Source: Pseudomonadota bacterium (GTDB lineage: Bacteria; Pseudomonadota; Gammaproteobacteria; Magnimaribacterales; D2472). From it: a DNA stretch of 64,000 nt. A model generated the notes under the pieces. That model was not told the DNA's origin. It made no database searches and saw only the letters and a program-made list of their open reading frames with translations. Location: assembly GCA_028404565.1 (NCBI GenBank), contig JAOOBR010000002.1, positions 25,848 to 89,847 on the forward strand, in the 5' to 3' direction. Positions 5,888-22,302 of the stretch are shown piece after piece (within the stretch, counting starts at the first letter, position 1; every line of letters starts with the position of its first letter). A program made the position numbers and the translations under genes.

Positions 5888-6331
5888 GTGATTTTTGAAG
5901 ATTTCCTTACTCTAAAAGGCAAAGACTTTAAAGGAAGATCTCTTGAGGATATTTGGTCCTTTTCAGATGAAGAAATAGAAAACTATCACGACTTTATTCA
6001 AGTAGTTTTTCCATTAAACAAAGCCAGTCAAGCAGTTTTTCATGGACACTTTTTAGACAGCACAGAACTAGTGCAACAGATTAGAAACAACAAAGAGGCA
6101 ACTAACAATATTATCAAATCTTCTCATTGGTTTATTTCTTTCCTTAAAAGAAATATGTATTGGAATGCCCACTCTAATCACAATCAATGGAGAATAACTA
6201 GAGTTATAGAGTGCTTAAGACTACTGGTCTCTGATGAAGAGGCAGATAATTTTTACAAAAATGTTTTAGAATTACTCAAAGACAACAATCTAGTAAATAA
6301 GAGAACATTAGATTTTTGGAAAAATGCTTAG
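5888..6331 (+). CDS. Opioid growth factor receptor (OGFr) N-terminal-domain-like protein
   Basis: 147 aa with a GTG start. HDFIQVVFPL and SNHNQWRITRVIECLRLL line up with the human OGFr conserved region (H-YIQWLFPL, SHNNLRITRILKSLGELG). Confidence 0.7.
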   Translation: MIFEDFLTLKGKDFKGRSLEDIWSFSDEEIENYHDFIQVVFPLNKASQAVFHGHFLDSTELVQQIRNNKEATNNIIKSSHWFISFLKRNMYWNAHSNHNQWRITRVIECLRLLVSDEEADNFYKNVLELLKDNNLVNKRTLDFWKNA

Positions 6332-7153: not shown

Positions 7154-7187
7154 TAATGAGAAACCTTGCTACGGACACTCTATTAAA

Positions 7188-7475
7188 ATGGAAATAAACT
7201 GGGTTGCAGTTGGTTGGATTATAGACATGATTTTAAATGGAACTGCCTGGCTTATCATTGCAGGATTTGCTTTGATATTAATTGATATGACTGACACATG
7301 GACAAGAAAAGCCATTAAATGGATGGATAAAGCTGATAAGTGGATAAGAAAACAGATAGATAGCCTTTTTGAATGGATTCAAAAAAATAATCTCAAAATA
7401 CTATCTTGCATCATATTATTAGTTATTTTTGGTATTCTTGCTCAGCTGGGAGTAATACCTAAGCTGATAACCTAA
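7188..7475 (+). CDS. Hypothetical membrane protein
   Basis: 95 aa with two hydrophobic segments flanking a charged Trp/Lys-rich loop. Confidence 0.5.
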   Translation: MEINWVAVGWIIDMILNGTAWLIIAGFALILIDMTDTWTRKAIKWMDKADKWIRKQIDSLFEWIQKNNLKILSCIILLVIFGILAQLGVIPKLIT

Positions 7476-7507
7476 AAATAAAAGATATAAAACAATAAAA
7501 GCTATAT

Positions 7508-7978
7508 ATGAAAAAATTAACAGTAATAAGCTTAATATTTATCTCTACCATTAATGCTGGCGAGCAAAGAGAAATCAATGAATTGATGGATGGCCTTCAC
7601 GAAGATGCACATAAAGGCAATTTTGAGACTTATTTTGATCGTTATGCTTCAGATGCCGTTTTCTTAGGAACAGACAAAACTGAACGCTGGACTATACAAG
7701 AATTTAAATCTTATGCTAAACCAGCTTTTGCAGATGGACATGGCTGGACATACAAAGTCATCGAGCGAAACTGGGAAGGAGATGGCGATACACGCTGGTT
7801 TGATGAAATTCTTTTTAATAAGAAGTTAGGACATTGCAGGGGTACTGGAGTCGTTCAACTAATTAATAATGAATGGAAGATTTCCCACTATGCTCTAACT
7901 ATGCTTGTCCCGAACTCTATTGCAACTGATATAGGTATACAAACTCAACAGGCAGACTCATCCCAGCTTAATAATTAG
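7508..7978 (+). CDS. NTF2-like (SnoaL/DUF4440-type) protein, secreted
   Basis: 156 aa with a signal peptide, then sequence typical of nuclear transport factor 2 family proteins (...YFDRYASDAVFLGTD...WKISHYALT). Confidence 0.6.
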   Translation: MKKLTVISLIFISTINAGEQREINELMDGLHEDAHKGNFETYFDRYASDAVFLGTDKTERWTIQEFKSYAKPAFADGHGWTYKVIERNWEGDGDTRWFDEILFNKKLGHCRGTGVVQLINNEWKISHYALTMLVPNSIATDIGIQTQQADSSQLNN

Positions 7979-16848: not shown

Positions 16849-18138
16849 TTATAAAAAAAGAAACTTGGAAACAAAAACAGCAGTTAAGAACCAAGCGCCA
16901 GATGAAATGTTTTTAATTTCACCATTAGAAATCTTGAGGACAACGTATGCCAAGAATCCAAGAGCAATTCCATTTGCAATGGAAAATGTAAGCGGAATCA
17001 TTACTATGATAATCAGAGCTGGTAAAAGCTCTGTTGAATCTGACCAATTAAGCTTTTCCATACCACTCATCATAAGAATAGAAACATAAATTAATGCACC
17101 TGCAGTAGCATAGGCTGGCACAATTGCAGCAAGCGGCGAAAAGAAAATTGCAACCAAAAAGAGAAGACCTACCACTACAGTTGTTAAACCAGTTCTTCCC
17201 CCAGCTTCTACTCCCGCAGAACTCTCAACATAACTTGTAACAGGGGAACAACCAAAGAAAGTCCCAAATATACTTGAACTACTGTCAGCTTTCAGAGCTT
17301 TATCAAAGTTTTTTGCATTGCCTAACTCATCAGTTATTTTTGCTCTAGTAGCAACGCCTAACAAAGTTCCAGCAGTATCAAAAAGATTAACAAAAAGAAA
17401 TGACATCACGACACTTAGCATCGCAACATCAAGAGCCCCAAGTATATTCATTTTCATAAAAGTAGGAGCAATACTTGGAGGCATAGAAACCAATCCTCGA
17501 AATTCAATTAGTCCAAACAGGACAGAAAGAATTGTTACTAGCATTACCCCGATCAGGATAGCTCCTGGAGTATTTCTCACAGAGAGAGAACAAATAATAA
17601 GAAAGCCAAATGCTGCCAACAAAGTTTCAGGATTTGTGAAATCACCAAGACTAAGAAATGTAGCATTGTTCGCAACTATCAACCCTCCATTTTTTAGACC
17701 TATAAATCCAATAAATAAACCAACACCAGCTCCCATAGCAATTCGAAGATTTAGCGGGATACTATCAAGCATCCACCTTCTCAATCTTGTTACGCTCATT
17801 ATGAAAAATAAAACACCTGCTAAGAACACTGCACCAAGCGCAACCTCCCATGAGTAACCCATTTCGCCTACAACCGTATAAGTAAAAAATGCATTTAGTC
17901 CCATTCCTGGAGCTAAACTTACTGGCCAATTTGAATAAATCCCCATAATTATGCAAGCCAACGAAGCTGCAAGACATGTACCTACAAAACTCGCACCAAG
18001 ATCCATGCCACTTACTGACATCATCTGAGGATTAACAAATATGATATAGGCCATTGTGACAAAGGTAGTGATACCAGCCAAAACCTCTTTGCCTAGGGAG
18101 GTATTATTCGATTGAAGTTTGAAGACTTTTTCTAACAT
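16849..18138 (-). CDS. NCS2/AzgA-family purine (adenine/guanine/hypoxanthine) permease
   Basis: 429 aa polytopic protein. N-terminus ...EVLAGITTFVTMAYIIFVNPQ... is typical of AzgA/PurP/GhxP permeases. Confidence 0.85.
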   Translation of the reverse strand: MLEKVFKLQSNNTSLGKEVLAGITTFVTMAYIIFVNPQMMSVSGMDLGASFVGTCLAASLACIIMGIYSNWPVSLAPGMGLNAFFTYTVVGEMGYSWEVALGAVFLAGVLFFIMSVTRLRRWMLDSIPLNLRIAMGAGVGLFIGFIGLKNGGLIVANNATFLSLGDFTNPETLLAAFGFLIICSLSVRNTPGAILIGVMLVTILSVLFGLIEFRGLVSMPPSIAPTFMKMNILGALDVAMLSVVMSFLFVNLFDTAGTLLGVATRAKITDELGNAKNFDKALKADSSSSIFGTFFGCSPVTSYVESSAGVEAGGRTGLTTVVVGLLFLVAIFFSPLAAIVPAYATAGALIYVSILMMSGMEKLNWSDSTELLPALIIIVMIPLTFSIANGIALGFLAYVVLKISNGEIKNISSGAWFLTAVFVSKFLFL

Positions 18139-18330
18139 TTAGATAAATTTTACAGGTTTAAACATACAAATTTAGGTTTTAAAGCAAAAAAAACAAAAAA
18201 AGTCGTCCAATCTTGATTTGAAGCTTGTTAAGTCAAAATTTAGAAAGTATTATTTTATATTGTGATTTGATTTGCACCATCTCCATGGTTAAAAAGGAGC
18301 TCAAATTTTTTGAGTAATATGTGAGTTAAA

Positions 18331-18378
18331 ATCGTTCAACTCTTCGGAGTCGGAAGTAAGCGAAAGCTGAAGGAACGC
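18331..18378 (+). promoter_or_regulatory. Glutamine riboswitch-like aptamer (glnA RNA type), copy 1 of a tandem pair
   Basis: AUCGUUCA-ACUC-UUCG-GAGU-CGGAAGUA-AGC-GAAA-GCU-GAAGGAACGC. P1 is CGUUC/GAACG, enclosing two tetraloop hairpins. The conserved cores match my recollection of the glnA RNA consensus. Confidence 0.65.
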
Positions 18379-18382
18379 AAAA

Positions 18383-18430
18383 ATCGTTCATCTCTTAGGA
18401 GACGGAAGTAGGTGAAAACCGAAGGAACGC
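18383..18430 (+). promoter_or_regulatory. Glutamine riboswitch-like aptamer (glnA RNA type), copy 2 of a tandem pair
   Basis: AUCGUUCA-UCUC-UUAG-GAGA-CGGAAGUA-GGU-GAAA-ACC-GAAGGAACGC. Same architecture as copy 1, with compensatory base-pair changes in both hairpins. Confidence 0.65.
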
Positions 18431-18435
18431 CGCTT

Positions 18436-18476
18436 GTTAAACGGACCGAGTTTAACTTCAATTGTCCTGCAGACAA
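18436..18476 (+). promoter_or_regulatory. Two hairpins between the aptamers and the receptor RBS (possible expression platform)
   Basis: GTTAAAC-GGACCGA-GTTTAAC (18436-18456) and TTGTC-CTGCA-GACAA (18462-18476). No U-tract follows, so they are not classic terminators. The GGGGA SD lies at about 18500. Confidence 0.3.
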
Positions 18477-18509
18477 AATACAAAATAAAAAACTTTACGG
18501 GGAAATTTT

Positions 18510-20828
18510 ATGAAAAATTATGTAAATCTTTTATTTAAAAAAGTTATTTTAGCTTCTTTTGTGTGTGCTTTTGGATTGAGTTCGATAGCGCAGGAGGTTG
18601 AAGAGGTGGTTGTAACAGCTGAAAAACGTTCTGAAAGCCTTCAGGATATATCACAAGCAGTTACTGCATTAACAGCAACCGATATTGAAGAAAAAAATAT
18701 AACCAGTTTTGTAGACCTAAGCGCTATTGTGCCTGGTGTAACCGTAGCTAAAAACGAAGGTTATAAAACAATAATCTCAATAAGAGGAGTAGGTAACGAG
18801 ACAAACCAGAATGCTATTGCAGCTCCATCAGTTGCATACCACATGGATGGTGTATTTATAGCTTCTCCATTTGCGCTGGGAACAGATTTTTTAGATGTTG
18901 AGAGAATTGAAGTATTGAGAGGGCCACAAGGAACACTTTTTGGTCAGAACTCTACAGGTGGAGCTGTTAATGTTATTAGCAGAGCCCCAACAACAGAGGG
19001 AGCAGAAGGAAAACTAAGCGTAACCTTTGGTGATTACAATCTAAAAAAAGTAAGCACTTCTAATAATTTTGTAATATCTGACAAAATTGCATCAAGATTC
19101 TCAATATCCTCAACAACAAGAGATGGGTTTAGTAAGAATGTTGTTACAGGTCAAGATCTTGATGATGACAATAACAAAAGCTTCAGAACAGATTGGATGT
19201 TTGATTTAAACGATACTTCAAGCCTAAGAGTCTTCGGTCAATATTTCAAAGTCGATAGAAATGGTGCTGCTATGCGTGGAATCGATGATCAAACTTCTGG
19301 AATGAGAAAACTTTCTCAAGACACTGTTTCTCAGCATGAGTTATCATCAATGGTTGTTGCAGCAATCTATGAATCTGATCTTGGGTACGCTAACTTAAAA
19401 ATAATAGCGAGTGTTCAGGAAGATGATGTCCTAGTTGTTAGAGACAATGATAGACATAATTACCTTGATCCAGTTTTATCAATTGAAGGACTTCCAGCAG
19501 GATCAACTTATCAAAGAGCTGAATTTACCCCTGAGACTTCCTTAGTTGATACCTCAACATTTGAAATTAATTTAGTTTCAAATGAGCCCGCTCTTAACGG
19601 GAAACTTGATTGGACTGTTGGTGCATTTTACATGGATCATGAGATAGAAAATGTGATTAGAGGTTATAGAGATGATGACTTAGACGGAAGAATTAAGTAT
19701 CTATGCGATGAATCCTTTGCTGATCCAAGTTATTGCTATGACCATGATTATGGAATCCCTGGAAGGTTTGATATATTTGGACCAAATGCAGAAGTTGATT
19801 TCTTTACTGATGCAAACCCAAGCAGAGAGTCTTACTCAGTTTATGCACAAACAACCTATAGTCTAGCGGATGCTTTCAGAATTGTATCTGGACTCCGTTA
19901 TTCAGAAGACACATTCACAACAGATGTAACAAACTTCTTAAATGTTGAATCTTTCCAAGAAGAGGGAACTACTGATGAAATAACATCAAGAGTAGTAGCT
20001 GAGGTTGATTTTTCTGAAGATCTTATGGGTTACTTCGCATTAGCAAGAGGATTTAAGCCTGGCGGAAGTAATTTAACATTTGGATTTGATGATGATAACG
20101 CCCCTCCGATGGTGTTTCCAACCTTCGAAGCTGAAACCGTTGACTCTGTTGAATTTGGTCTTAAATCAACCTTCGCTGATGGTGCTGCAAGAGCAAACAT
20201 AGCTGTTTTCTCTTATACATATGAAAATCTCCAATTCCAAGCTACTGATCCAGATATTTACAGAGGTGGTGTGGCAAATATACCCGAATCTGAAATGTCA
20301 GGTCTTGAGATTGAATTCACAGGATTCCTGACAGATTCACTCAGTCTTGATATGAATCTTGCATTCTTGGACTCAGAAGTAACATCAGATTATGAGGTTT
20401 TAGATAATGTTGATGCCTATCCTTATTTCTTTGGTGAAGAAGATATTAGATATGGTCTTAGAGAAAACGTAAAAGGCAACCAGCTTGCAAAAACACCAGA
20501 ATTTACAGCTGATATAACACTTAAACATGAAACTAATCTGGCTTCGGGCAACTCTTTAACTACTTTAGTTCAGTATGTAAAAAGGGGCGATTTCCAGCAA
20601 AGAGTTTCAAACAATCCTACTGTAGATTATGTTAGAAGTTATCAGATTGGAAATATTACAACCAGTATTGGTTTTAGTGATAACTTAGAAGTTGATTTTA
20701 TGCTTCTAAATATTTCCGATGAAGCTGGCGTCAACTCAAGCATGACAGATGTTTTTGGTGTTGCTGCTACAGGTCTAGAATTGATACCACCAAGACAATT
20801 TATGACAAGGATAAGATATAGCTTCTAG
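18510..20828 (+). CDS. TonB-dependent outer-membrane receptor
   Basis: 772 aa. Signal peptide, TonB-box/plug region (EEVVVTAEKR...RIEVLRGPQGTLFGQNSTGGAVNV), a long beta-barrel, and a C-terminal aromatic residue (...IRYSF). Confidence 0.92.
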   Translation: MKNYVNLLFKKVILASFVCAFGLSSIAQEVEEVVVTAEKRSESLQDISQAVTALTATDIEEKNITSFVDLSAIVPGVTVAKNEGYKTIISIRGVGNETNQNAIAAPSVAYHMDGVFIASPFALGTDFLDVERIEVLRGPQGTLFGQNSTGGAVNVISRAPTTEGAEGKLSVTFGDYNLKKVSTSNNFVISDKIASRFSISSTTRDGFSKNVVTGQDLDDDNNKSFRTDWMFDLNDTSSLRVFGQYFKVDRNGAAMRGIDDQTSGMRKLSQDTVSQHELSSMVVAAIYESDLGYANLKIIASVQEDDVLVVRDNDRHNYLDPVLSIEGLPAGSTYQRAEFTPETSLVDTSTFEINLVSNEPALNGKLDWTVGAFYMDHEIENVIRGYRDDDLDGRIKYLCDESFADPSYCYDHDYGIPGRFDIFGPNAEVDFFTDANPSRESYSVYAQTTYSLADAFRIVSGLRYSEDTFTTDVTNFLNVESFQEEGTTDEITSRVVAEVDFSEDLMGYFALARGFKPGGSNLTFGFDDDNAPPMVFPTFEAETVDSVEFGLKSTFADGAARANIAVFSYTYENLQFQATDPDIYRGGVANIPESEMSGLEIEFTGFLTDSLSLDMNLAFLDSEVTSDYEVLDNVDAYPYFFGEEDIRYGLRENVKGNQLAKTPEFTADITLKHETNLASGNSLTTLVQYVKRGDFQQRVSNNPTVDYVRSYQIGNITTSIGFSDNLEVDFMLLNISDEAGVNSSMTDVFGVAATGLELIPPRQFMTRIRYSF

Positions 20829-20887: not shown

Positions 20888-21457
20888 ATGAAAAAGCATT
20901 TTATCCAGGCAGACCAGCTTCTAAAGGATTCTTTTAACTTAGCTTGGAAAATCTTTGAGAGTGGTTTTAAACCAGATTATATTATCGGTGTTTGGAGAGG
21001 CGGAGCTCCAGTTGGTATAGCAGTTCAGGAGTTCCTAGATTTTCTTGATGTTCCCTCAGATCATATAGCTATTAGAACCTCATATTATTCAGGGATTGAC
21101 TCTAGGAAAGATGAAGTTCAAGTTTATGGACTTAATTATGTTATTAGAAAAATTAAGTCGGATGACTCTCTATTAATTGTTGACGATGTTTATGACACAG
21201 GTATGTCAGTTAATAAGGTTGTAACGGATTTAGAATCTGCATGTAAAAAGAATACACCTGAAATACGAATAGCAACCCCATACTTCAAACCTAGTAAAAA
21301 TAAGACAGATAGAATACCTGATTACTATATACATGAAACAGATGAGTGGCTTGTTTTTCCTCATGAACTTCAGGGCTTATCCATGGACGAAATAAAAGGA
21401 AATAAACCCGAGCTAGACTCACTTATCAAAAATATTGAGGCATTGAAGTCTAAATGA
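20888..21457 (+). CDS. Purine phosphoribosyltransferase-family protein (Gpt/Hpt-like)
   Basis: 189 aa. PRPP-binding motif LLIVDDVYDTGMS and Gpt-like overall layout (RGG...VG, ...EWLVFPHE). Confidence 0.7.
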   Translation: MKKHFIQADQLLKDSFNLAWKIFESGFKPDYIIGVWRGGAPVGIAVQEFLDFLDVPSDHIAIRTSYYSGIDSRKDEVQVYGLNYVIRKIKSDDSLLIVDDVYDTGMSVNKVVTDLESACKKNTPEIRIATPYFKPSKNKTDRIPDYYIHETDEWLVFPHELQGLSMDEIKGNKPELDSLIKNIEALKSK

Positions 21458-22302
21458 CTAACTTAACGGTTGCAGAAGTTTATGCAATAGGATTACCTAT
21501 CATCTATGGAATGATTGCCCTTGAGGCCATTTTTTCATCTCTTACCAACAAATCTTTTTATAGATTAGATGATACCTTGTGCACTGCAGGATTGCTTATC
21601 GGAAATATTCTAATTGGATCTGCTGCAAAGGGGCTATCTTTTGCAGTTCATATCTTTCTTTATCAGTTCAGAGTAATCGATTTAGCAAGCATCATACCCC
21701 TTTGGCTTATGTGGGTATTAGCTTTTGTCTTAATAGATTTAGTTTTTTATATTTACCATAGGCTTTCACACAGGGTAAGATTTCTTTGGGCTATTCATAT
21801 GAGTCATCACTCAAGCGAGGAAATGAACTTTGCAGTATCCCTTCGACAAGCATGGTTTGCACCATTGTCAAAACTTCCCTTTTTTGCAGTGTTACCTTTG
21901 GTAGGAATGGATCCTACCATTGTTGTTATTGCTGGAGTTATAAGCACGCTTTGGGGAGTAGTTGGGCATACACAAATTGTTGATAAGTTGGGACCACTAG
22001 AAATTATTTTTAATACTCCTTCTCACCACAGAGTCCATCATGGGGCCAATAAAGAGTACATCGATAAGAATTATGGCAACCTTTTTATTATTTGGGACAA
22101 GATGTTCGGAACATTTGAGCCCGAGAAAGCACCAGTAAAATATGGGTTAGTTAACAATGTTAATACATTTAATCCTGTAAGGATTACCTTTATGGGATGG
22201 AGCGCAATACTTAAAGATATAAGAAAAGCGAAAACAGTTAAAGAAGCTTTGTCGCTGACATTTGGGCCGCCAAATACTAAATTAAGAGGCGGCTCATTTT
22301 AA
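21454..22302 (+). CDS. Sterol desaturase / fatty acid hydroxylase superfamily membrane protein
   Basis: 282 aa. Histidine boxes HRLSH, HMSHH and HHRVHH. Confidence 0.75.
   Translation: MTNLTVAEVYAIGLPIIYGMIALEAIFSSLTNKSFYRLDDTLCTAGLLIGNILIGSAAKGLSFAVHIFLYQFRVIDLASIIPLWLMWVLAFVLIDLVFYIYHRLSHRVRFLWAIHMSHHSSEEMNFAVSLRQAWFAPLSKLPFFAVLPLVGMDPTIVVIAGVISTLWGVVGHTQIVDKLGPLEIIFNTPSHHRVHHGANKEYIDKNYGNLFIIWDKMFGTFEPEKAPVKYGLVNNVNTFNPVRITFMGWSAILKDIRKAKTVKEALSLTFGPPNTKLRGGSF

Follow-up and report, generated by a model that had tools for sequence, protein, structure and literature searches.

A 64-kb stretch of DNA (hereafter the window) carries, upstream of a gene for a TonB-dependent receptor, what is by its sequence a genuine tandem type-1 glutamine riboswitch. 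Two aptamers of the glnA RNA class (Rfam RF01739), predicted to bind glutamine, lie in the 5′ leader of ~250 nucleotides (nt) of the receptor operon of a SAR86 gammaproteobacterium. An earlier note, written from the sequence alone, had described two elements of ~48 nt with the same fold at 18331-18430, in the largest intergenic gap, and had likened them to glnA RNA; the sequence is exactly as described there, and the assignment was upheld by covariance-model scores. The explanation that we favour, with moderate confidence, is that the pair would work as a glutamine OFF switch on an operon encoding the receptor and a phosphoribosyltransferase (PRTase), and that the cargo of the receptor would be purine-related.

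For identification of the element, the window was scanned against all 4227 Rfam families at their gathering thresholds, and two matches to RF01739 were the only ones returned. Aptamer 1 (18331-18381, + strand) scored 66.3 bits (E 1.7e-12) and aptamer 2 (18383-18433, + strand) scored 65.1 bits (E 3.8e-12), compared with a gathering score of 35 bits; both matches span the model from end to end (positions 1-53 of 53). Glutamine-II (Downstream-peptide, RF01704), the other class proposed for comparison, stayed at 14.9 and 11 bits, well below its gathering score of 33, and both of these matches overlap those of RF01739. A permissive Rfam rescan of 18140-18560 gave nothing credible beyond RF01739. 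The aptamer pair is thus far beyond chance expectation.

Reading of the sequence at 18331-18430 gives a P1 helix CGUUC/GAACG in both aptamers. Hairpin 1 reads ACUC-UUCG-GAGU in aptamer 1 versus UCUC-UUAG-GAGA in aptamer 2; for hairpin 2 the corresponding sequences are AGC-GAAA-GCU and GGU-GAAA-ACC. The core strands CGGAAGUA and GAAGGAACGC are unchanged between the copies, and in the alignment with the family consensus the invariant CGGAAGUA and GAAGGAACG(C) connect P1, P2 and P3. As had been claimed, the two copies differ almost only by compensatory stem changes: three double changes were counted, together with one loop base and the 3′ tail. When 48 distinct gammaproteobacterial aptamers were aligned, P1 and the cores proved invariant; P2 and P3 together have 12 predicted pairs, and six of these covary, with changes on both sides. 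One such compensatory change, from GGU/ACC to GGC/GCC in P3, is found in the orthologous locus L174.

Both aptamers are on the coding strand of the receptor gene, 80 nt upstream of its ATG at 18510, in agreement with the orientation originally proposed. The two Rfam matches are separated by 1 nt, and the P1 helices by 7 nt (CAAAAAU). The intergenic gap that houses them (18139-18509, 371 nt) is the largest in the window; the next-largest candidate, 7154-7507, contains a membrane open reading frame (ORF) of 95 amino acids.

Conservation of the element was examined upstream of receptor orthologues, drawn from 76 metagenome loci with receptor relatives plus contigs found by exact protein look-up (loci are given L numbers below). 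Marine metagenome contigs and single-cell genomes contain a matching locus, whose receptor is 96-100% identical and whose neighbours are unchanged. The near-identical L029, for instance, comes from the single-cell genome of uncultured SAR86 cluster bacterium AG-461-E16, and since SAR86 is a gammaproteobacterial clade, the taxonomic context suspected from the sequence was correct. Both aptamers are present in 15 independent metagenome contigs with enough upstream sequence (receptor identity 81-98%) and in several single-cell genomes; four truncated contigs with orthologues in the same identity range show the proximal aptamer. The distance between aptamer 2 and the start codon is 78-83 nt in all the orthologues that bear aptamers. 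A natural single-aptamer variant also exists: in L174 (2872-2922), aptamer 1 has been lost. Beyond this group, aptamers are missing from all 34 orthologues at 56-75% identity that have 300 nt or more of sequence upstream, and Rfam detected no aptamer in the 158-nt intergenic region of L001 (73% identity). Hence, the aptamers are conserved throughout one clade of receptor orthologues. The two checks on which the earlier note made its reading depend, a covariance-model match and conservation before orthologous receptors, have both turned out in its favour. Among receptors that are 81-98% identical the leader is nearly invariant, and its conservation exceeds that of the protein.

These comparisons bear on the idea that the pair might be a passively copied repeat of ~100 nt, or an assembly artefact, devoid of regulatory function at this place. 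The window's aptamer pair does occur elsewhere: L055 (SAR86 AG-894-D08) has a triple aptamer (7358-7532) before a TorF-porin gene, and its first two aptamers equal the window's pair except for the spacer. Furthermore, in L192 (2821-2923) an upstream region of the L055 type (91% identity over 2.9 kb) is joined to the receptor gene exactly at the aptamers, a junction that reflects either natural recombination across the aptamers or chimeric assembly across a shared repeat. We nevertheless consider a functionless copy very improbable. Besides the window, several independent single-cell genomes and over 15 metagenome contigs of separate projects share the order permease-leader-receptor, and the promoter, the flanking modules and the spacing are all conserved among receptor loci. 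In addition, all the invariant core nucleotides are kept, and stem changes are only compensatory or wobble, a pattern that indicates purifying selection rather than decay. On either view of L192, the riboswitch of the receptor seems to have been copied from a nitrogen-regulon leader that already existed.

The gene presumably controlled (18510-20828, + strand) encodes a protein of 772 amino acids with Plug (PF07715, 1.1e-17) and TonB_dep_Rec_b-barrel (PF00593, 4.2e-28) domains, which makes it a TonB-dependent receptor, as had been proposed. It is followed by the gene for a purine-type PRTase of 189 amino acids (20888-21457, + strand) with a Pribosyltran domain, whose best solved relatives are purine/6-oxopurine phosphoribosyltransferases (1vdm, 5e-16; GpT-2). 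A third gene (21454-22302, + strand), for a fatty-acid-hydroxylase-family protein of 282 amino acids, has a start that overlaps the PRTase stop and probably belongs to the receptor operon. On the opposite strand, a divergent gene (16849-18138, − strand) encodes an AzgA/AZG-family purine permease (NCS2) of 429 amino acids; its Xan_ur_permease match has an E value of 3.6e-47, and among solved structures it matches the adenine/guanine permeases AZG1 (E 7.1e-66) and AZG2 (1e-48). The divergent permease is context, outside riboswitch control. The G+C content is 33-38%.

The triad made of divergent AzgA permease, receptor and PRTase is kept in both clades of the receptor family, from 98% down to 57% receptor identity. 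In the riboswitch-less clade the triad is followed by guaB-guaA (for example, L001 4544-12052). In the riboswitch clade it is followed by hydroxylase and metallopeptidase genes; the hydroxylase gene is confined to this clade, where it stands in place of guaB-guaA. Because the triad is present in both clades and the aptamers in one only, the purine neighbourhood is old and the riboswitch a later, clade-specific addition, whose gain coincides with rearrangement of the downstream genes. The substrate, which had been left as unknown by the earlier note, is narrowed by this deeply conserved neighbourhood of purine permease, purine PRTase and, in one clade, guaBA; the purine cargo itself is our inference.

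Annotation of the receptor in databases deserves a comment. Receptor models P0002, P0003, P0005-P0009 and others are 805-817 amino acids long, at least 33 residues longer than the 772-amino-acid ORF. If the extra residues are assumed to be N-terminal, a model of 805 amino acids would start at ~18411, inside aptamer 2; gene callers, therefore, have probably read the riboswitch as coding sequence.

Additional elements, all on the + strand, were recognised in the leader. A sigma-70-like promoter (TTGTTA-17 nt-TATTAT, 18225-18253), obtained by consensus scan, predicts a transcript start at ~18260. Its hexamers are unchanged in nearly all riboswitch-bearing receptor leaders; the promoter is, however, a prediction only, and the consensus scan gave no more sites than in shuffled sequences. 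At the predicted transcript start lies the 5′ strand of a proposed closing stem (UUGUGAUUUG...UUUGCA, 18260-18276), which would pair with 18468-18483. The stem is present in the minimum free energy (MFE) structure with the aptamers either constrained or free, and GCAUUU/AAAUGC and UUGCA/UGCAA are analogous pairings in GlnII and porin leaders of other SAR86 genomes.

A 5′ pseudoknot module (18276-18299) comes next. It is made of a hairpin, ACCAU-CUCC-AUGGU (18276-18289), a UAAAAA linker and a GGAG (18296-18299) that pairs with the hairpin loop. The H-type motif, ACCAU-(A)CUCC-AUGGU followed by an A-rich linker and GGAG, was found in the window and in L007, L011, L015, L063, L066, L073, L081, L098, L111 and L122. 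Upon search of ~1.3 Mb of locus sequence, 31 of 31 copies of the module were located at most 220 nt upstream of a glutamine aptamer. Comparison of 13 distinct variants showed 99% of cells paired, versus 26-43% in slid controls, figures that are conditioned on the search pattern, which fixed seven of the pairs. Compensatory changes are seen at both of the pairs that the pattern left free, AU/CG in four variants and UA/CG in L015. No Rfam family matches the module at E ≤ 10, and the only families returned in 18140-18560 were RF01739 and RF01704, on the aptamers themselves. The module appears twice in porin leaders, is absent from L055 and L192, and is deleted in L201, a leader (upstream of 653) that also has a mismatch in segment X, described below.

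The pseudoknot is abutted by a variable hairpin, CUCAA-N-UUGAG (18300-18314). Its stem covaries across leaders, with pairing kept in the versions CCCU/AGGG, UCCU/AGGA, CCC/GGG and CUCAA/UUGGG. Segment X (GAGUUAAAAUCG, 18323-18334) follows, with complementarity to segment Z; aptamer 1 P1 begins with the final two bases of X, which is conserved in every SAR86 leader that has Z. Downstream of the aptamers, segment Y (GUUAAAC, 18436-18442) can pair with Z as a local hairpin. Segment Z (CGAGUUUAACUU, 18447-18458), which contains a conserved CGA and then GUUUAAC (18450-18456), can thus pair with either Y or X. Y, CGA and Z are conserved, and the 4-5 nt between Y and CGA vary freely. A Y/Z module is also found after the aptamers that precede GlnII and porin genes.

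The CUGCAG of hairpin B (UUGUC-CUGCA-GACAA, 18462-18476) is kept throughout SAR86 leaders, and the hairpin lacks a U tract on its 3′ side; L138 has a compensatory change (AUGUC/GACAU) and L174 a longer stem. Since the 3′ strand of the closing stem (18468-18483) overlaps hairpin B, both structures cannot form together. The leader ends with a Shine-Dalgarno-like ACGGGGA (18497-18503) and the ATG (18510-18512), which are conserved in all orthologous leaders.

Several other candidates in the leader were considered and discarded. A leader peptide starting at ATG 18286 (MVKKELKFFE) lacks a Shine-Dalgarno sequence, and its frame is not conserved, since other receptor leaders encode MVKKELK* and porin leaders MG*. 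A sigma-54 promoter at TTGCACC was rejected by eye because the −24 GG is not at the right spacing. A small helix closing the Y loop (CCG/CGG, CCA/UGG or CGUG/CACG) suits some leaders and fails in L133, L138, L017 and L055. Finally, the CUCC loop of the 5′ hairpin is unlikely to serve as an anti-Shine-Dalgarno sequence for the true ribosome-binding site: L015 has a CCCC loop, which covaries with an adjacent GGGG, while its real Shine-Dalgarno sequence stays GGAG.

To examine how the aptamers might be coupled to the rest of the leader, 18260-18545 was folded with a nearest-neighbour model, which leaves pseudoknots and tertiary contacts outside. In the unconstrained fold the native P1 helices have probabilities of 0.04 and 0.00. 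The X-Z helix is part of the MFE structure, and the 3′ P1 strand of aptamer 1 pairs instead with the 5′ P1 strand of aptamer 2, in an inter-aptamer hairpin of probability 0.87. The X-Z helix spans both aptamers and captures the first two bases of aptamer 1 P1. When both aptamers are enforced, the ensemble energy rises by 8.5 kcal/mol, and Y-Z then takes over from X-Z. On the grounds of these models, a ligand-dependent rearrangement through competing folds is plausible. Glutamine binding would lock P1 and the core of each aptamer, and the locked aptamers would resolve the competing fold (inter-aptamer hairpin plus X-Z) into a form with the local hairpin Y-Z. Both aptamers would have to fold to resolve the misfold, which provides a reason for the existence of two aptamers with P1 helices just 7 nt apart. 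The same 7 nt leave no room for an expression platform after aptamer 1, and the two aptamers would therefore share one output.

The rearrangement would lower expression after transcription initiation, by an effect on translation or mRNA stability and not by intrinsic termination. No terminator-like site was found on the + strand between 18000 and 18700, and hairpins Y-Z and B precede A-rich sequence rather than a U tract; an intrinsic terminator was thus rejected as the platform. As a consequence of OFF control, the operon would be active at low glutamine, the state of nitrogen limitation, like the GlnII, porin-Amt-amidase and ATP-grasp operons of SAR86. The receptor would import a purine-related compound, and the divergent AzgA permease and the PRTase would complete salvage, which may spare the glutamine-costly de novo synthesis of purines or supply nitrogen.

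The polarity of the switch is deduced by analogy. The SAR86 aptamers that precede GlnII, porin-Amt and ATP-grasp genes share with the receptor leader both the 5′ pseudoknot and the 3′ Y/Z/CUGCAG modules. In other proteobacteria, too, the class stands before amt, glnA, gltB and gltD-like genes. Activation of glutamine synthetase by glutamine would be positive feedback, and repression is thus the coherent reading. It seems fairly probable, therefore, that the platform shared by SAR86 leaders is an OFF switch, and that the receptor operon is made at low glutamine.

A number of observations weigh against the explanation outlined above, and they concern its output, its polarity and the nature of the cargo. 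As regards the output, the probability of being unpaired is 0.56 for the Shine-Dalgarno sequence and 0.92-0.96 for the AUG, with the same values in the free and in the aptamer-enforced ensembles, and accessibility is likewise unchanged in one orthologue and in four GlnII leaders. The secondary-structure models accordingly show no sequestration of the Shine-Dalgarno sequence, and folding gives no polarity. With no terminator and no change in accessibility, the remaining option is that translation or mRNA stability is controlled through tertiary contacts or factors outside the model. Besides, X, Y and Z are almost invariant, and covariation cannot choose between X-Z and Y-Z; when such a test was made it was uninformative, as the sole substitutions in Z give G-U pairs in both helices.

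An alternative is that the output is set mainly by the flanking modules (the 5′ pseudoknot at 18276-18299 and CUGCAG) through a factor other than glutamine. They would bind a protein or a second ligand, so that the leader would be a two-input device, or they would govern access of RNase or Rho instead of acting on the ribosome-binding site. This view would accommodate an RNA in which neither a terminator nor a change in Shine-Dalgarno accessibility is predicted. The modules are conserved across leaders of different genes, the pseudoknot is strictly associated with glutamine aptamers (all 31 copies), and its loop covaries with the adjacent GGAG/GGGG and not with the real Shine-Dalgarno sequence, as seen in L015. 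We consider it quite unlikely, however: in our judgement a stem of 5 bp and a loop pairing of 4 bp are too small for an obvious ligand pocket, the pseudoknot is dispensable in some natural leaders (L055, L192 and L201 do without it), and no partner is known for the flanking modules.

As regards polarity, the only type-1 glutamine riboswitch characterised in vivo, that of Synechocystis gifB, is an ON switch, through a mechanism that has been described as unclear (PMC6212724). A genuine tandem of the opposite sign is hence conceivable, in which glutamine would activate and the receptor and PRTase would be made when nitrogen is plentiful. The gene order of the sister clade can be accommodated in such a scheme, as receptor and PRTase are followed there by guaB and the glutamine-dependent guaA, and salvaged xanthine or XMP could feed the GMP synthase step; the folding models are neutral on this point. 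On the other side, the same platform precedes GlnII and porin-Amt genes in SAR86, where activation would amount to positive feedback on glutamine synthesis and ammonium uptake, and negative regulation was considered a reasonable expectation for glnA-associated copies by Klahn et al. (PMC6212724). All in all, we view activation by glutamine as unlikely. Proteomic data from SAR11 (Smith 2013) were set aside as evidence of polarity: SAR11_1310 and SAR11_0818 are preceded by "riboswitch-like" regions of just 125-146 nt, which were never identified as glnA RNA.

As regards the operon and its cargo, the PRTase gene is probably co-transcribed with the receptor gene, a view based only on a gap of 59 nt in which no terminator-like site was found. 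The receptor reaches the cutoff of no substrate-specific NCBIfam model, the best being TonB-siderophor with 107 bits against 223.5 and the others lying far below theirs, and its best partial matches are siderophore, heme and B12 receptors, through the plug domain; the PDB matches, too, lie mainly in this domain. One source labels relatives of the receptor as "iron complex outermembrane receptor". Free purine bases are small enough to pass through porins, and a TonB-dependent receptor devoted to them would be unusual. Furthermore, a survey whose queries were SAR11-derived genes (BLASTp cutoff 1e-25) reported that purine usage genes are absent from SAR86 (PMC11698098).

On these grounds, the riboswitch might be real and the cargo a non-purine compound (an iron chelate, a vitamin or some other form of organic nitrogen), the purine neighbourhood being synteny without functional link. 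We regard this as possible but doubtful. The permease and the PRTase accompany the receptor over the whole range of 98% to 57% identity despite the change in downstream genes, and they adjoin guaB-guaA in the other clade; moreover, the resemblance to siderophore receptors is essentially confined to the generic plug domain. With AzgA permease, purine PRTase and, in the sister clade, guaB-guaA as conserved partners, a purine-related cargo is slightly favoured. SAR86 genomes carry the conserved cluster AzgA purine permease-TonB receptor-purine PRTase (-guaB-guaA), in a group for which PMC11698098 reported no purine usage genes.

A broader proposal, which we make tentatively and consider less probable than the OFF switch itself, is that the SAR86 leader might be a larger, lineage-specific RNA in which the aptamers are combined with a closing stem that starts at the 5′ end of the transcript, the small H-type pseudoknot and the competing helices X-Z and Y-Z. 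It would be a modular nitrogen cassette copied by recombination from porin/amt genes to the receptor gene, with nitrogen-gated acquisition of purines as the outcome. Were this the case, one SAR86 clade would have put high-affinity outer-membrane purine uptake and salvage under direct sensing of glutamine by RNA.

The distribution of the riboswitch class was surveyed by matching a 22-base core pattern to 185,579 species-representative genomes, which gave at least 119 loci, a sample rather than a census. By record title, the matches listed include ~25 cyanobacterial loci, 22 from SAR86 and ~50 from Alphaproteobacteria, the latter including SAR11-like single-cell genomes, Pelagibacteraceae, SAR116 and Rhodobacterales; the remaining ones belong to other Gammaproteobacteria and a few other groups. 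Representative loci, re-checked with Rfam, scored 54-68 bits, and this included loci from Thiothrix, Kiritimatiellaceae and a betaproteobacterial metagenome-assembled genome (MAG). Two pattern matches, L034 (a Clostridia MAG) and L093 (a "Deltaproteobacteria" MAG), were dismissed as chance, both being under the Rfam threshold. L093 has, unrelated to any riboswitch, a group II intron (RF02001, RF01998, RF00029) and a tRNA, at 5945-6017 and 7457-7748.

Nitrogen-metabolism genes are typical, though not defining, targets of the class. Targets were scored as the first substantial gene downstream. Among the matches listed, the ammonium transporter gene amt was found at least 21 times, a circularly permuted ATP-grasp protein at least 18 times, glutamine synthetase at least 16 times, a TorF/Gcw_chp putative porin at least six times, and gltB and gltD-like genes at least twice each; short ORFs follow the element in cyanobacteria in a number that was not counted, and the TonB receptor is the target at one locus at least, L029, the window's counterpart. 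In SAR86, the riboswitch precedes a TorF-porin-Amt-amidase operon in L122 and others, a GlnII-type glutamine synthetase gene in L063, L081, L015, L066 and L073 (the L063 protein scores 381 bits with NF041605, below the cutoff of 500), and a CP_ATPgrasp-Alpha-E pair in L120. In marine Alpha- and Gammaproteobacteria, a nitrogen regulon thus centres on the glutamine riboswitch, with amt, glnA/GlnII, gltB/D, porin and ATP-grasp genes as members.

As the earlier note stated, glnA RNAs were described from cyanobacteria and marine metagenomes, often in tandem, in association with nitrogen genes (Weinberg 2010, PMC2864571; Sherlock 2022, PMC9481103). Glutamine riboswitches have also been reported in phages of SAR11 and OM43 (PMC9004378), and a passage of PMC12379486 mentions RF01739 in SAR86 MAGs in passing. 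Klahn et al. (2018) found the class to be exclusive to cyanobacterial genomes in RefSeq 80, and left open which organisms carry the glnA-associated copies of metagenomes (PMC6212724). Our survey provides an answer to that question on the carriers of "marine metagenome" copies: in the genome sample they come largely from SAR11-like bacteria, SAR116, SAR86 and other marine proteobacteria. In the literature open to search, from which most subscription journals are excluded, we found no link between a glutamine riboswitch and a TonB-dependent receptor, and nothing that links SAR86, purines and TonB receptors. The claim that the receptor regulon would be undescribed is consistent with this search. 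The aptamer class and its tandem arrangement are known; the receptor/purine-salvage target and the architecture of the SAR86 leader appear to be undescribed.

Several known systems resemble the one proposed here in part. The leader of Synechocystis gifB has the same P1/P2/P3 aptamer with CGGAAGUA and GAAGGAACGC, is likewise a 5′ untranslated region, and senses nitrogen status via glutamine. In contrast, the SAR86 host is not a cyanobacterium, the targets are a receptor and a PRTase instead of the glutamine synthetase-inactivating factor IF17, flanking RNA modules specific to SAR86 are present, and the polarity deduced is OFF where that of gifB is ON (PMC6212724). The tandems of marine metagenomes offer a closer parallel in arrangement, as two aptamers of the same class lie head to tail before one gene; SAR11-like and SAR116 genomes show it too, with amt, glnA and ATP-grasp genes downstream. 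Work by Ames and Breaker in 2011 reportedly dealt with such marine metagenome tandems. A later inventory counted 157 glutamine doublets and four triplets, and the doublets were filed as pseudo-cooperative, with separate expression platforms (Sherlock 2022, PMC9481103). The SAR86 pair differs from such doublets in that no separate platform follows each aptamer, there is one shared downstream region, and the target gene is new.

Control of a TonB-dependent outer-membrane transporter by a riboswitch has a precedent in the adenosylcobalamin riboswitch upstream of btuB. The likeness lies in a leader RNA that senses a metabolite and controls a TonB-dependent transporter without a protein regulator, control that in our case is deduced. 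The difference is that the ligand of the btuB riboswitch is the cargo or a derivative, and product feedback results, whereas glutamine would be a global nitrogen signal by which uptake is gated according to status. The gene btuB is mentioned along with the cobalamin riboswitch in PMC9004378. If our explanation is true, the SAR86 leader would be a further case of a riboswitch that gates a transporter by a global status signal and not by the molecule transported.

Purine salvage under riboswitch control has a precedent as well, as the guanine and adenine riboswitches of Firmicutes precede xpt-pbuX and other genes for purine transport and salvage. The SAR86 locus resembles xpt-pbuX in the association of a riboswitch with a purine PRTase and purine uptake genes; unlike it, aptamer class and ligand are others, and the signal would be nitrogen status rather than purine sufficiency. 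At gathering thresholds, the Rfam scan detected no purine riboswitch in the window. Lastly, the output deduced, with glnA, amt and scavenging transporters induced at low glutamine, is that of the NtrBC/PII regulons of Proteobacteria. In the SAR86 case, unlike in those regulons, the signal would be read directly by RNA and not via GlnD/PII/NtrBC. SAR11 lacks GlnD/PII/NtrBC (PMC3870248). The survey of the class suggests that streamlined oligotrophs read nitrogen status directly by RNA.

SAR86 bacteria are among the most abundant heterotrophs of the surface ocean, are essentially uncultured, and have many TonB-dependent receptors of unknown cargo. A riboswitch before one such receptor gives a handle on when the receptor is made, namely on its link with nitrogen status, and on a possible cargo, which would be purine-related. 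If the purine link is true, the published picture of SAR86 as not using purines would have to be revised.

Additional observations were made on riboswitch-bearing loci other than that of the receptor. In the porin-amt leaders L011, L122, L098, L111 and L007, a conserved UGAAGGUUUGACCCUUUUU is found in place of the Y/Z module. This sequence consists of a short hairpin and then a U run, and its 5′ arm repeats the UGAAGG of the aptamer; by its sequence, it could be a weak terminator-type platform. The ATP-grasp genes (PF14403/PF04174) are targets in L010, L014, L068, L103, L115, L120 and 12 more loci, with Alpha-E as the next gene in L120; they are a top-three target among the matches listed and lie outside the list of associated genes given by Weinberg in 2010.

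Rfam-confirmed aptamers outside cyanobacteria, SAR11 and SAR86 were found in L109 (2560-2610, in a 1.1-Mb contig of a Thiothrix MAG), L123 (Kiritimatiellaceae) and L116 (Betaproteobacteria UBA3031). Those of L109 and L123 precede gltB, and L116 has a tandem. Barring faults in the binning of MAGs, the host range of the class may be wider than published. Across the ~50 alphaproteobacterial loci (L008-L110), tandems are frequent before amt, glnA and ATP-grasp genes in SAR11-like bacteria, SAR116 and Rhodobacterales, and two neighbouring amt genes can have one tandem each (for example, L039 411-528 and 2453-2569). In the alphaproteobacterial leaders, the inter-aptamer spacer GCAUGCAA-GUUA is complementary to UAAC-UAAGCAUG, located downstream of aptamer 2, and this complementarity suggests a helix that would enclose aptamer 2.

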